DNA from: Dictyostelium discoideum
Lineage: Eukaryota
Direction of reading: 5' to 3'
NCBI GenBank assembly: GCA_000004695.1
Contig: CM000155.2
Span: forward strand, 2,688,001 to 2,752,000
DNA length: 64,000 bases
In this document: positions 45,345-48,998 of the stretch, piece after piece
Position numbering within the stretch: the stretch's first letter is position 1
Layout: each line of letters begins with the position of its first letter
The notes under the pieces: model-generated
Database searches by the model: none
What the model was told of the DNA's origin: nothing
Seen by the model: only the letters and a program-made list of their open reading frames with translations
Translations under genes and position numbers: made by a program

Positions 45345-48300
45345 ATGGATACTCTCACAAAAAATTCTTCAGATCTAAGCCAAATGCTTGACCCTGAATA
45401 TTTCAAGAGTCAAAGCAGTGGTGATTCTAATAATCAAAATAATAATAATAATAATAATAATAATAATAATAATAATAATAATAATAATATTATTGATGTT
45501 AATAATAATAATAATAATATTAAAGATAGCCCAAAAAAAAAAACTGTAAGATTCACAAGCCAAGTAGAGTTTGTTGAACCTTCCCAAAGTCAAAATAATA
45601 ATAATAATCAAAATAATAATAATAATAATAATAACAGTTCACCTGATATTAATATGTTCGATATAAATAATAATAATAATATATTTGATGTATTTCAAGA
45701 TGATATACCAAATTCATTTATGCTATCAGTTATAGATGGTTCACAACAAATTATTTTTAATGAAGAGGATGATAGTGAAGAAATTCAACAATCATTATCA
45801 CAGCAACAACAACAATTATCATCATCATCATCATTGGATAATTATTTATTAGATTCATCTTTGCAACAACAACAACAACAACAACAACAACAACAACAAC
45901 AACAACAACAACAACAACAACAACAACAACAACAACAACAACAACAACAACAACAACAACAACAACAACAACAACAACAAAAACAATTATCAATAGAATT
46001 AAGAGATGATGAATATTATCAAAGTATATCATTACCAATTTGGGATGCAGTTACATCACAAGATCCAAAGATGGTAATGAAATTTGGAAAAATTAAAAGA
46101 AAAAGAGGTATTGTAATTGATAATAGAAGAAAGAAAGTACCAGATATTACAATTGATGATTTAATGAAAAAGGATTTATTAAGAATTGGTGACACATTAT
46201 GTTATTGTATTGGTGGTGTGAATCATTTTGCATTACTATTAAGAGATGGGTATATTGAATATGATTCATTAAGATTGCCATCGGTACATGCATTTGTAAT
46301 TCATGTATTATCAAATTTAGAAAAGAATAAAAAGTTTAGATGGTTTTCACCTTGGGATTCAGTTTCTGTACGTGGTAAATCTTTAAATTTCATTCGTTCA
46401 ATCTTTCAATCAAAATTCTATAAAGGTGGTGATAATATTATTTATCAATATGAACCAACAACAGCAACAACAATAATAATTAAAAAGCAAGAATCTCCAA
46501 TTAAATCTTCTTCACCACAAAAAAACATTTTAAAAGAATCACCATCACCTTCAAAAAATTTAAAAAGAACATTAGATAATACTGATAATTCTCAAAATTT
46601 AAATAATAATAATAATAATAATAATAATAATAATAATAATAATAATAATGAAAAAGATATTAGTGATAAAAATAGCAAAGATGATAATGATGATGATGGT
46701 GATAAAATAACTAAAAAACAAAAGACTGATGATAATATTGAAAATAATGGAAAACAGCAAATGGCAGTTGATGACGAATCCACTCAAAGTATACAACCAG
46801 TTTTAATTGATGATGAATCAACTCAAAAAATTATTGAGCAAAAAGATGAAAATGAAAAAGTAGAAAAAGAAAAAGAAAAAGCAGAAAAAGAAGATGACGA
46901 GGCAACACAAGCTATGGCAGATAATTTAAATAATGAATATGATAATTCACCAACTATACCAATGACAACAATGGAATGTGTTAGAGCAAATTTAAATACT
47001 GGTTTTAGAGATAATGACCAAGATGAAGATGAAAATGAAAATGAAAATGAAAATAAAAAAGTTACTTCAAAAAATAATAGTGAATCAACTTTACAAAATT
47101 CAAATTCAGATTTACCAATAATTTATTCATCACCAAATTATCAACAAAATAAATTTCAAACTCCTAAAACACCAGCACCTTCACCATCATCAACACAAGA
47201 TCATTTCAATAGACCAACAATTGAACAACCATCTTCACCTTATAAATCACCTTCTAAATCACAACAACAAGCTTCACAAAAATCATCTCAACAACAACAA
47301 TCACAACAACAATCACCATCCAAATCTCAAGAACAACAAGCCTCACAAAAATTATCACAACAACATCAATCACCATCCAAGTCTCAGGAACAACAAACTT
47401 CACAAAAATCATCACAACAACAGCAATCACAACAACAATCACCATCCAAATCTCAAGTATCACAACAATCATTATCCCATCAATTAACACAATTACAACA
47501 ATCACCTGCTAAATCTCAAGAACAATCACCTGCTAAATCTCAACAACAACAACAATCCACATCATCATTATTAAATCACACCATTTCACCAAAGCAATCA
47601 CAAAATAATACAAATCCAGATTCACCATATTCTTCAATTTCTCTTCATCAACCAATTTTCGTTACTCCTTCACCAAGAGGTTCAAATATGGGTAGTATTG
47701 TAAGTAATGGTGGTGGTAGTGGTGGTAGTAGCGGAAGTAGTAGTATCAGTGGTAGTATTAGCAGTAGTAGCGATGGAGGTTTAAATCACCAACAATCTCA
47801 ATCTTCCCAATCCTCACAAAATTCATCATCATCCTCTTCATCCTCTTCTATATTTTCAATACCGGCAGGTCAAAAACCACCAACTCCATCTCCACTTCCA
47901 TCAATTCAACCATCATTACCAATCCAAAATACGACAACAGCAACAAACCAATCATCACAACTTGGTAGTAGTAATAATATTAATAGTAATAGTAATAATC
48001 ATTCAAATACATATGATGAATTACGTTCATTCCAAATTCCACAATCACAAAATAACTTTGAAGATAGTCAACAAACTCTTGATGTTGATCAACAACCTTC
48101 ACAATATTTATCACCAAAAAAAGTATCACAACATTCTCAACAAAAAAAAAATCAATTATCTCAACAAAAATCATTATCACAACAACAATTATCACAACAG
48201 CAACATCAATCATCATCACAACAACAACAACAAATTATAATCGAAAAAGAAGAAAATATTTCATCACCATTAAATAAATCAAAGATTGAATTACCAATTA

Positions 48301-48998
48301 TAATTGCAACAGGATTAACAGGATTAATGCAATTACATATTCATTCACTTTGTTCTGCAATTGGTGGAAAACTTGTAACTGAATTTAATGATCAAGTTAC
48401 ACATGTCGTTTGTAGTACACTCGATGGTGATGGAAGTAAAGAGAATTTAGCTAAAAGAACAATTAAATATCAAATGGGAATTGGAAGAGGTGGACTATGG
48501 TTAGTTTCATTCGATTGGATTCTTGAATCTTTGAATGAAAATCAATGGGTAAATGAAAGTGAATTCGAAATTCAAGGTGACTCAATTGGGTTAGGTTCAC
48601 CATTGAAATCAAGACAACAACTATTTGAAACTAAAAGATTATTTTATGGTCAAAGTTTTTATTTAGCTGGTGAATTTCAGTCACCATCCCGTCAAGAGAT
48701 TACCTCTGTAATTAAATCATCAGGTGGTATAGTTTTAGATCAGTTACCTCCAAAACCTCAGAATTTAAATGAAATGCTTCAATCAACTTGTACTGTAATT
48801 TGTCATCCACTTTTATCCTCAATTGATCAATCATTAATTCAAACAATTTATCTTTCAACTAAACATATTCCAATTTCTTTTAGTTGGATCTTTGATTCAA
48901 TTTCAAAGTATAAATTATTACCAAAAGATAATTATTATCAATATCCAAATTCAAATAATAGTAAATTCAAAATTAATGATCCTTCAGTTGCTTATTAA
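45345..48998 (+). CDS. Large nuclear-type protein of 1217 aa. It has poly-Asn tracts, a 38-residue polyQ tract, a basic mid-domain, five SQ-rich repeats of about 25 aa and C-terminal tandem BRCT domains.
   Basis: ATG at 45345-45347. BRCT1 reads ELPIIIATGLTGLMQLHIHSLCSAIGGKLVTEFNDQVTHVVCS...GGLWLVSFDWILESL. BRCT2 reads RLFYGQSFYLAGEFQSPSRQEITSVIKSSGGIVLD...TVICHPL...IPISFSWIFDSI. The repeats are SPSKSQEQQ(A/T)SQK(S/L)SQQQQSQQQ x5 (47230-47520). (CAA)38 lies at about 45866-45983. Confidence 0.8.
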   Translation: MDTLTKNSSDLSQMLDPEYFKSQSSGDSNNQNNNNNNNNNNNNNNNNNIIDVNNNNNNIKDSPKKKTVRFTSQVEFVEPSQSQNNNNNQNNNNNNNNSSPDINMFDINNNNNIFDVFQDDIPNSFMLSVIDGSQQIIFNEEDDSEEIQQSLSQQQQQLSSSSSLDNYLLDSSLQQQQQQQQQQQQQQQQQQQQQQQQQQQQQQQQQQQQQQQKQLSIELRDDEYYQSISLPIWDAVTSQDPKMVMKFGKIKRKRGIVIDNRRKKVPDITIDDLMKKDLLRIGDTLCYCIGGVNHFALLLRDGYIEYDSLRLPSVHAFVIHVLSNLEKNKKFRWFSPWDSVSVRGKSLNFIRSIFQSKFYKGGDNIIYQYEPTTATTIIIKKQESPIKSSSPQKNILKESPSPSKNLKRTLDNTDNSQNLNNNNNNNNNNNNNNNNEKDISDKNSKDDNDDDGDKITKKQKTDDNIENNGKQQMAVDDESTQSIQPVLIDDESTQKIIEQKDENEKVEKEKEKAEKEDDEATQAMADNLNNEYDNSPTIPMTTMECVRANLNTGFRDNDQDEDENENENENKKVTSKNNSESTLQNSNSDLPIIYSSPNYQQNKFQTPKTPAPSPSSTQDHFNRPTIEQPSSPYKSPSKSQQQASQKSSQQQQSQQQSPSKSQEQQASQKLSQQHQSPSKSQEQQTSQKSSQQQQSQQQSPSKSQVSQQSLSHQLTQLQQSPAKSQEQSPAKSQQQQQSTSSLLNHTISPKQSQNNTNPDSPYSSISLHQPIFVTPSPRGSNMGSIVSNGGGSGGSSGSSSISGSISSSSDGGLNHQQSQSSQSSQNSSSSSSSSSIFSIPAGQKPPTPSPLPSIQPSLPIQNTTTATNQSSQLGSSNNINSNSNNHSNTYDELRSFQIPQSQNNFEDSQQTLDVDQQPSQYLSPKKVSQHSQQKKNQLSQQKSLSQQQLSQQQHQSSSQQQQQIIIEKEENISSPLNKSKIELPIIIATGLTGLMQLHIHSLCSAIGGKLVTEFNDQVTHVVCSTLDGDGSKENLAKRTIKYQMGIGRGGLWLVSFDWILESLNENQWVNESEFEIQGDSIGLGSPLKSRQQLFETKRLFYGQSFYLAGEFQSPSRQEITSVIKSSGGIVLDQLPPKPQNLNEMLQSTCTVICHPLLSSIDQSLIQTIYLSTKHIPISFSWIFDSISKYKLLPKDNYYQYPNSNNSKFKINDPSVAY
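45866..45983 (+). repeat. (CAA)n trinucleotide repeat encoding polyQ within the BRCT-protein CDS.
   Basis: Uninterrupted caa units, about 38 copies. Confidence 0.9.

Follow-up and report, generated by a model that had tools for sequence, protein, structure and literature searches.

The definition of the RAMA domain is based on its occurrence together with adenine methylases and restriction enzymes, and the domain was originally predicted to discriminate 6mA. The same paper reports that some eukaryotic RAMA proteins combine the domain with BRCT and links the RAMA-bearing lineages to the presence of 6mA; Amoebozoa are not named in its list of these lineages (Iyer, Zhang and Aravind, Bioessays 2016; PMC4738411). 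For the RAMA domain of MPND, a preference for 6mA DNA was reported in one study (PMC6591016). In contrast, a structural study found DNA binding of MPND to be unaffected by 6mA and the RAMA domain of CcrM to contact only the DNA backbone; both domains bind dsDNA via the backbone without a need for 6mA, and the RAMA domain of MPND also binds histones (PMC9963953). Dictyostelium discoideum contains neither 6mA nor 5mC and has no AMT1 (PMC12695648). Therefore, a RAMA domain in this organism cannot read endogenous 6mA.

Dictyostelium is used as a model for DNA repair since it keeps vertebrate-like pathways, for example DNA-PKcs, the Fanconi anaemia pathway and PARP-dependent NHEJ. BRCT pairs are known to read CDK-phosphorylated S-P sites in Dpb11/TopBP1, and BRCT scaffolds also serve replication initiation, transcription and cytokinesis. 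The mediator layer of Dictyostelium is barely described. Here, EAL70982, which carries an FHA domain and tandem BRCT and is distinct from the protein described below, has been published as the apparent MDC1 homologue (PMC4013092), and the D. discoideum genome contains no apparent ATM (PMC8529158). A search of the literature yielded no report of a dictyostelid BRCA1 or BARD1.

Here, a gene located in a 64,000-nucleotide stretch of D. discoideum DNA (the window) was analyzed, which combines a RAMA domain with a tandem BRCT (Table 1). A preliminary description of the window had given its coordinates and length exactly. The gene is real, complete and contained in a single exon, since the alignment with the orthologues extends from the N-terminal motif through to the final residue, and it is a so far uncharacterized gene of social amoebae. 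An exhaustive search revealed a family of only six protein clusters (P0003 to P0008), all from Dictyostelia and annotated merely as hypothetical or BRCT-containing. None of the entries in the protein collection searched matches the window protein exactly; P0003, a D. discoideum protein, is about 96–97% identical to it. Word-indexed searches missed this near-identical protein, and with the RAMA segment, the BRCT pair or the concatenated alignment as query they returned almost no matches, which reflects a failure of the method and not an absence of relatives. The comparison below covers the window protein and the six clusters from the exhaustive search, seven sequences in total. The six dictyostelid lineages keep the architecture, with an identity of 54–66% within the RAMA domain and a divergent linker sequence.

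Table 1. Features of the RAMA-BRCT gene; nucleotide positions refer to the window.
Feature	Start	End	Strand	Residues (aa)	Remarks
ORF	45345	48998	+	1217 aa in total	Span includes stop codon; RAMA, disordered linker, tandem BRCT
Conserved N-terminal motif DLSQMLDPEYFK	45372	45407	+	10–21	Orthologue alignment
KKTVRF, RVxF-like motif	45537	45554	+	65–70	Orthologue alignment
polyQ	45864	45980	+	174–212	39 residues, (CAA)n
Conserved RAMA block	46017	46430	+	225–362	Pfam match and orthologue alignment
Three acidic T-Q motifs (DDESTQSI, DDESTQKI, DDEATQAM)	46764	46916	+	474–524	Alignment
SPYK, then six SP[SA]KSQ-initiated S/Q-rich tandem units	47235	47567	+	631–741	
BRCT1	48294	48578	+	984–1078	Phosphate-binding T989, G990, R1038, T1039, K1041 (aligned to BRCA1 S1655, G1656, R1699, T1700, K1702)
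BRCT2	48633	48935	+	1097–1197	+3 pocket positions changed
C-terminal SVAY-COOH	48984	48995	+		[ST]-x-x-[YF]-COOH invariant in all seven sequences

The conserved RAMA block consists of an N-terminal extension, YQSISLPIWDAVTSQDPK, the basic segment KFGKIKRKRG (aa 246–255) with its G-K-x-K-R-K-R-G core, which is invariant across the orthologues, and the Pfam RAMA match proper (aa 260–357). The latter (PF18755) scores 40.5–40.7 bits against a Pfam cut-off of 35.2 bits and covers positions 11–104 of the 107 profile positions. RAMA was detected in all six orthologue segments (best E = 3.3e-13), and the precomputed Pfam set of P0008 lists it together with BRCT and BRCT_2. The basic domain running from KFGKIKRKRG to FRWFSPWD (aa 246–357), which had been noticed beforehand from the letters, is thus present, conserved and identified as RAMA, for which the preliminary description had rightly advised a search. 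The RAMA core carries a net charge of +4 to +11 and is preceded by an acidic stretch, an arrangement also seen in MPND (PMC9963953). A HMMER search of PDB sequences with the RAMA profile gave only spurious matches (E >= 0.02), none of them to a solved RAMA structure.

Upstream of the RAMA block, the K-x-V-R-F motif is kept in the window protein, P0003, P0004, P0005 and P0007; it was not seen in P0006, and P0008 is without the N-terminal region that carries KKTVRF in the window protein. Judged from the motif, KKTVRF could be a docking site for PP1. A polyQ tract had been described correctly, except that 39 and not 38 uninterrupted glutamines are counted. It is absent in P0003 and therefore varies between strains; likewise, the copy number of the SP[SA]KSQ repeats differs between the window protein and P0003. 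Since both features differ between near-identical proteins, they appear to be weakly constrained. A Pfam match to TFIIA (aa 34–223, 25.7 bits, below the 36.2-bit cut-off) as well as PDB matches to huntingtin and Shaker were rejected as polyQ/polyN artefacts. Pfam matches to RING, ankyrin, Tudor and MPN/JAB domains were found in none of the seven sequences. An FHA domain, for which the preliminary description had suggested a search, was not found at E <= 1 with the full protein or at E <= 10 with N-terminal segments. Around the gene, the GC-rich stretch upstream of it showed no plasmid match and no Rfam family, and no functional link to the neighboring ORFs was found.

The RAMA domain and the BRCT pair are separated by about 620 disordered residues. 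Within this linker, the acidic T-Q motifs are shared by most orthologues in the form [DE][DE].[AS]T[QI]x[IVM]. They are followed by the tandem units, which start at aa 635, 657, 676, 699, 720 and 728, have lengths of 22, 19, 23, 21, 8 and about 25 aa, and correspond to periods of 57/69/126 nt detected by TRF at 47263–47552. Five repeats of about 25 aa had been proposed; the repeats are real, and they comprise four units of 19–23 aa and two short ones. Each SP[SA]KSQ core combines a full CDK consensus (SPxK) with an SQ site. The repeats had further been called dense in S/TQ, which is literally correct, with 14 sites at aa 650–760, and is explained by their richness in S and Q, since composition predicts 12.2. 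The same holds for the whole window protein (43 observed versus 35.3 ± 4.9 expected) and for the linker (35 versus 29.0, p = 0.076 using local 30-aa block shuffles). Shuffling the whole linker gave 35 versus 25 (p = 0.008) and overstated the enrichment, because S and Q cluster together. In the more distant orthologues P0004, P0005, P0006 and P0008, S/TQ is enriched at p <= 0.003 with local shuffles and outnumbers Q[ST], the effect being modest. The CDK consensus behaves differently: SPxK occurs 11 times in the window protein versus 0.9 expected, SPxK/R is enriched 5–12 fold in six of the seven sequences, and the reversed motif is not enriched in any of the seven at p <= 0.05. Compared to S/TQ, SPxK is better conserved in the repeat core and much more strongly enriched.

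At the C-terminus, Pfam identifies BRCT (PF00533, E = 1e-11, aa 994–1063) and BRCT_2 (PF16589, E = 1e-15, aa 1099–1197), and a single alignment spans aa 987–1197 and the BRCA1 BRCT pair. Both signature tryptophans, equivalent to W1718 and W1837 of BRCA1, are conserved, which bears out the tandem BRCT of the preliminary description. Orthologues whose BRCT1 is intact retain the phosphate-binding residues, except for a G to R exchange in P0004; the gene model of P0007 is without this segment. R1038, the equivalent of BRCA1 R1699, also corresponds to R1933 of MDC1. In a profile search of the PDB, BRCA1 ranks highest with 89 bits (E = 2.5e-24), followed by BARD1 with 69 bits (E = 4e-18), MCPH1 with 46 bits, 23 bits below BARD1, PTIP with 29 bits and MDC1 with 26 bits (E = 6e-5). 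Weak matches to the BRCTs of Rad4/TopBP1 and PTIP were also seen, and at E <= 1 the PDB matches include no 53BP1 or Crb2 chain. The phosphoserine pocket is thus intact and the best matches belong to repair proteins, so that the refutation named in the preliminary description, a missing pocket and best hits to non-repair BRCT proteins, does not apply; MDC1, 53BP1 and Crb2 are far behind BRCA1 and BARD1 or unmatched. Judged by these matches, the pair is a genuine tandem BRCT of the DNA-repair class and of BRCA1/BARD1 type. The pocket which in BRCA1 accommodates Phe at position +3 is altered (F1704Q, N1774 to S1113, M1775 to P1114), and its +3 preference should therefore differ from that of BRCA1. 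The invariant S-x-x-Y-COOH tail looks like a ligand of tandem BRCT domains and may be read as one.

Taken together, the protein is on balance probably a nuclear, chromatin-tethered phospho-reader scaffold restricted to Dictyostelia, in which two readers are connected by a linker and which may act in genome maintenance or S phase. The basic RAMA domain, with its G-K-x-K-R-K-R-G patch and the acidic stretch, would tether the protein to dsDNA or nucleosomes, by analogy to MPND and CcrM; this tethering would be independent of adenine methylation since the organism has none. The BRCT pair would bind a motif containing phosphoserine or phosphothreonine, or perhaps ADP-ribose, candidate ligands being gamma-H2AX, a phosphorylated partner or the conserved tail of the protein itself. 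The SPxK, acidic T-Q and S/TQ motifs mark the linker as a putative phosphorylation target, and CDK together with DNA-PKcs or ATR may switch the docking of other factors by modifying it. The result would be an adaptor that is bound to chromatin, depends on phosphorylation and serves genome maintenance or S-phase control. A role in DNA damage would be suggested solely by the class of the BRCT pair. Such a protein would be analogous to the mediator proteins but orthologous to neither MDC1 nor 53BP1 nor BRCA1.

This scaffold model overlaps with, rather than excludes, a possible if somewhat unlikely reading as a CDK-regulated scaffold in replication, cell cycle or transcription, which would be unrelated to DNA damage and follow the logic of Dpb11/TopBP1 or PTIP. 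The SPxK clusters are the strongest conserved signal of the linker, Dpb11/TopBP1 BRCT pairs offer a precedent and the weak Rad4/TopBP1 and PTIP profile matches point the same way, yet the pair resembles BRCA1/BARD1 far more than TopBP1 or PTIP. Unlikely is the assignment as a mediator of MDC1/53BP1 type, in which the SQ-rich repeats would be target clusters of ATM/ATR and the BRCT pair would read gamma-H2AX. The intact pocket of a C-terminal BRCT pair, including the R1699-equivalent arginine, the modest S/TQ enrichment in four orthologues and the resemblance of the acidic T-Q-x-[IVM] motifs to FHA ligands are in line with it. However, the S/TQ density of the window protein is accounted for by composition, MDC1 scores 26 bits versus 89 for BRCA1, FHA and Tudor domains are absent, an MDC1-like candidate is already published with EAL70982, and ATM is not apparent in this genome.

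The high BRCA1 and BARD1 scores over the whole length of the pair, by far the best of all, could also indicate a divergent orthologue of one of them, which has lost RING (and ankyrin) and gained RAMA as a nucleosome anchor. We regard this as quite unlikely. The first 285 residues contain no cysteine and the whole protein has just seven, so that a RING is impossible, and none of the seven sequences shows a RING or ankyrin match. Without RING, the BRCA1-BARD1 heterodimer and the E3 ligase activity, the defining traits of the family, would be missing, and the pocket for Phe at +3 is changed. Finally, a reader of 6mA in DNA, coupling such marks to phospho-signaling, would agree with the original prediction for RAMA and with the single report on MPND; it is highly improbable in an organism devoid of 6mA and AMT1, and the structural data on MPND and CcrM, where binding is indifferent to 6mA or limited to the backbone, speak against it as well.

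For the mediator layer of Dictyostelium, the RAMA-BRCT protein represents a concrete candidate that is easily knocked out. Since its host has no 6mA, it also provides a clean test of whether RAMA needs this mark. Two further readings, which we consider doubtful, would see in it a methylation-independent eukaryotic RAMA anchor or a dictyostelid stand-in for the chromatin reading of BRCA1/BARD1. In the first, a RAMA domain strictly conserved without adenine methylation would be a natural demonstration of methylation-independent anchoring to DNA or nucleosomes. In the second, RAMA would replace the nucleosome recognition that is performed by the ankyrin repeats and BRCT of BARD1, and the invariant S-x-x-Y-COOH tail, once phosphorylated, could control access to the BRCT pocket through autoinhibition or head-to-tail oligomerization. 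If the protein is an ordinary nuclear scaffold, the gain would be one of annotation, RAMA plus tandem BRCT replacing ‘hypothetical’ or ‘BRCT domain-containing’.

Compared to the known systems, the domain combination is that of the RAMA-BRCT architectures mentioned in PMC4738411, with the difference that D. discoideum has no 6mA. As in MPND/MYSM1, RAMA is associated with acidic regions (PMC9963953); in contrast to these proteins, its partner is a BRCT reader and not an enzyme, the JAMM/MPN deubiquitinase domain being absent, and HMMER detects no sequence similarity between it and the solved RAMA structures. From 53BP1, Crb2 and Rad9 the protein differs by the lack of Tudor and of a BRCT match of 53BP1 type. 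With MDC1 and S. pombe Mdb1 it shares disordered, phosphosite-rich repeats followed by a C-terminal BRCT pair predicted to be of the phosphopeptide-binding type. To this extent the MDC1/53BP1-like layout of the preliminary description stands, whereas its class assignment does not, since FHA is absent, the BRCT similarity to MDC1 is weak, and the repeats have no sequence relationship with the SDT, TQXF and PST repeats. In comparison to BRCA1/BARD1, RING, ankyrin repeats and coiled coil are lacking, the N-terminal module is RAMA, and the +3 specificity pocket is altered. Nevertheless, BRCA1 and BARD1 match best, by sequence as well as by profile, across the two BRCT repeats and the inter-repeat linker, and they share with the dictyostelid protein the S/T-G and R-T-x-K phosphate-binding residues as well as both signature tryptophans.

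The preliminary description of the reading frame was exact in coordinates and in length (1217 aa). The alignment of the six dictyostelid orthologues to the window protein runs from the N-terminal motif DLxxM[IL]DPxYFK to the final residue, and the frame therefore represents a complete single-exon gene, located in a very AT-rich window (about 15-30% GC) with polyN and polyQ coding tracts. The protein consists of an N-terminal RAMA domain, a disordered linker and a C-terminal tandem BRCT of the BRCA1/BARD1 class. This architecture is conserved in, and restricted to, the Dictyostelia. 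An exhaustive HMMER scan of the RAMA segment against 1.84 billion representative proteins returned only six proteins (all E < 1e-37), from D. discoideum, Polysphondylium violaceum, Cavenderia fasciculata, Tieghemostelium lacteum, Synstelium polycarpum and one EukProt entry, which are annotated solely as hypothetical or 'BRCT domain-containing protein'. The orthologues share 54-66% identity in the RAMA domain and 48-59% in the BRCT pair, and the linker can be aligned at short motifs only. They were all recovered by this exhaustive search only; a word-indexed protein search missed the near-identical D. discoideum protein P0003 and four of the five more distant orthologues, returning P0008 alone, although all are present in the collection. 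Thus, for such eukaryotic proteins a negative result of the indexed search does not represent absence.

The RAMA domain (PF18755), whose presence had been considered before, was found when the N-terminal segment was scanned alone (40.5 bits, curated cut-off 35.2; profile positions 11-104 of 107). The Pfam scan of the full-length window protein revealed no N-terminal domain, which is probably due to its low-complexity content. All six orthologue segments match RAMA (best E = 3.3e-13), as do five of the seven family members scanned at full length, and the precomputed Pfam set of P0008 is RAMA, BRCT and BRCT_2. The conserved block (aa 225-362) exceeds the Pfam match and contains YQSISLPIWDAVTSQDPK as well as an invariant G-K-x-K-R-K-R-G patch. 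RAMA was defined computationally as a domain likely to discriminate 6mA, and its occasional combination with BRCT in eukaryotes was already noted (PMC4738411). For the RAMA domain of MPND, 6mA selectivity was reported in one study (PMC6591016), while a structural study described binding of dsDNA independent of 6mA, as well as of histones and nucleosomes; here, MPND is flanked by acidic regions, and the RAMA domain of CcrM touches the DNA backbone only (PMC9963953). The family mirrors MPND in combining a basic RAMA core (net charge +4 to +11) with an acidic region ahead of it. Both 6mA and 5mC are absent from D. discoideum, as is AMT1 (PMC12695648); therefore, the RAMA domain of the window protein cannot read endogenous 6mA.

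The C-terminal BRCT pair was confirmed by Pfam (BRCT, aa 994-1063, E = 1e-11; BRCT_2, aa 1099-1197, E = 1e-15). In a single-sequence search of PDB chains, rat BRCA1 was matched with E = 7e-15 over aa 987-1197, human BRCA1 and BARD1 with about 2e-11 and MCPH1 with 1e-4, and MDC1, 53BP1, PTIP and Crb2 were not among the matches. A profile built from five orthologues sharpened this ranking to BRCA1 (89 bits), BARD1 (69), MCPH1 (46), PTIP (29) and MDC1 (26), followed by Rad4/TopBP1, REV1 and Brc1 below MDC1; 53BP1 and Crb2 were again absent. The phosphate pocket is intact in the alignment to human BRCA1, whose sequence as used agreed with the HMMER alignment strings: S1655, G1656, R1699, T1700 and K1702 correspond to T989, G990 (Arg in P. 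violaceum), R1038, T1039 and K1041. The residues that determine the preference of BRCA1 for Phe at +3 are altered yet kept within the family (F1704 to Q, N1774 to S, M1775 to P, R1835 to F/Y), and the pair should therefore bind phosphopeptides or ADP-ribose with a specificity of its own. ADP-ribose binding has been reported for BARD1 (PMC5737498). The model of P0007 (EukProt gene8050-9902_t) lacks about 45 residues within BRCT1, where VTHV is directly followed by WIDE; this is probably an intron-call error of the gene model and not a real deletion.

Within the linker, the CDK consensus [ST]-P-x-[KR] is a much stronger and better conserved signal than S/TQ. It occurs 11 times in the window protein versus 0.9 expected and is 5-12 fold enriched in six of the seven sequences, and the reversed motif is enriched at p <= 0.05 in none of the seven. 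The repeats, previously described as dense in S/TQ, do contain 14 such sites, which is not significantly above the 12.2 expected from composition. The whole window protein harbors 43 (35.3 +/- 4.9 expected) and its linker 35 versus 29.0 (p = 0.076, local 30-aa block shuffles); whole-linker shuffling gave p = 0.008, which overstates the enrichment since S and Q are concentrated in shared stretches. Using local shuffles, an excess (p <= 0.003 each) was observed for P0004 from P. violaceum (39 versus 23), P0005 (15 versus 8), P0006 (25 versus 16) and P0008 (11 versus 5.5), and P0007 has 13 versus 17. The reversed dipeptide Q[ST] is rarer than S/TQ in every sequence but P0007. At the family level, S/TQ enrichment is therefore a modest real signal, and the kinase for any such phosphorylation would have to be DNA-PKcs or ATR.

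The repeat core SP[SA]KSQ, an SPxK site followed by SQ, recurs in P. violaceum. Instead of five units of ~25 aa, six of 22, 19, 23, 21, 8 and ~25 aa are present, and the polyQ tract comprises 39 residues versus 38 described. In P0003 (KAM9973526.1, 96-97% identical) the polyQ is replaced by LQQKQL and the repeat-unit count differs; both tracts are therefore unstable over a short evolutionary scale and length-polymorphic between very close genomes. The only S/TQ sites conserved as motifs are three acidic T-Q motifs outside the repeats, with counterparts in most orthologues (e.g., EEATIKV, NEATQLI, NEPTQQV) and as many as four [DE][DE]E[AS]T[QI]KV copies in Cavenderia. By their form, these could be putative pT-x-x-[IVM] sites resembling FHA ligands or, alternatively, hydrophobic-acidic motifs like those of SUMO interaction.

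Further short motifs are conserved, namely SPYK at aa 631 and [FY]-Q-[IL]-P ahead of the BRCT pair. KKTVRF fits the RVxF consensus for docking of protein phosphatase 1; K-x-V-R-F is kept in the window protein, P0003, P0004, P0005 and P0007, is not seen in P0006, and P0008 lacks the N-terminal region concerned. The C-terminal [ST]-x-x-[YF]-COOH is invariant in all seven members (SVAY, SVSY, SHAY, TVSF, SVSY, SMVY), and the 15-20 residues ahead of it are poorly conserved. Known tandem-BRCT ligands have a like form, gamma-H2AX ending in pSQEY-COOH and Abraxas in pSPTF-COOH. The motif may therefore be a self-ligand, and a role in autoinhibition or self-association could be envisaged.

Positions of the gene, its motifs and its surroundings within the window
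Feature	Window position	Strand	aa	Remark
Assembly gap	43969-44067			run of 99 N
G-rich, homopolymer-laden sequence	to ~45200			about 1.1 kb, follows the gap
RAMA-BRCT reading frame	45345-48998	+
KKTVRF, RVxF-like	45537-45554		65-70	K-x-V-R-F at aa 66-70
polyQ	45864-45980		174-212
DDESTQSI, DDESTQKI, DDEATQAM	46764-46916		474-524	acidic T-Q motifs
SPSKSQ repeat tract	47247-47567
TRF repeats	47263-47552			periods 57/69/126 nt
[ST]-x-x-[YF]-COOH	48984-48995		1214-1217
ORF, weak GAS2-like	50637-51659	+		340 aa, sub-threshold GAS2-domain match
ThiF-family E1-like protein	53595-54563	+		E = 4e-43
Leucine-rich-repeat protein	55545-58685	+		1046 aa

The neighboring reading frames, several of which gave zero matches, show no relation to the RAMA-BRCT gene, as expected in a eukaryote. 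The G-rich sequence upstream is unlike the remainder of the window (43% GC in bin 44001-46000 versus about 22% elsewhere), matches no plasmid or Rfam family and looks like low-quality read sequence at the edge of the assembly gap. It stops about 150 bp upstream of the ATG, and the promoter region is therefore not reliably represented in the window.

In the family, the intact phosphate pocket is combined with clustered CDK-consensus sites. Mechanistically, the RAMA domain and the KRKRG patch would anchor the protein on DNA or nucleosomes, the partner read by the BRCT pair would be phosphorylated or ADP-ribosylated, and phosphorylation of the linker would bring in further factors. Together, this would result in an adaptor that is bound to chromatin and serves genome maintenance or the control of S phase, and such a mediator-like working is the reading we somewhat favor. 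The gene is genuine and uncharacterized, yet an unsurprising domain combination of the BRCT-scaffold type. It is chiefly of value as a candidate mediator that is tractable in a model organism for repair; further, it offers a natural test of whether RAMA functions independently of 6mA.

Among known mediators, no family is fully matched. Pfam revealed no RING, ankyrin, FHA or Tudor domain in any family member, and the first 285 residues of the window protein contain zero Cys. The window protein differs from MDC1 by the missing FHA domain and weak BRCT similarity, from 53BP1/Crb2 by the missing Tudor domain and BRCT match, and from BRCA1/BARD1 by the missing RING. The MDC1/53BP1-like interpretation is therefore partly supported, as regards the proposed working and not the family membership. 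In D. discoideum, another protein, EAL70982, combining FHA and tandem BRCT, has been named the apparent MDC1 homologue (Wei et al., 2014; PMC4013092).
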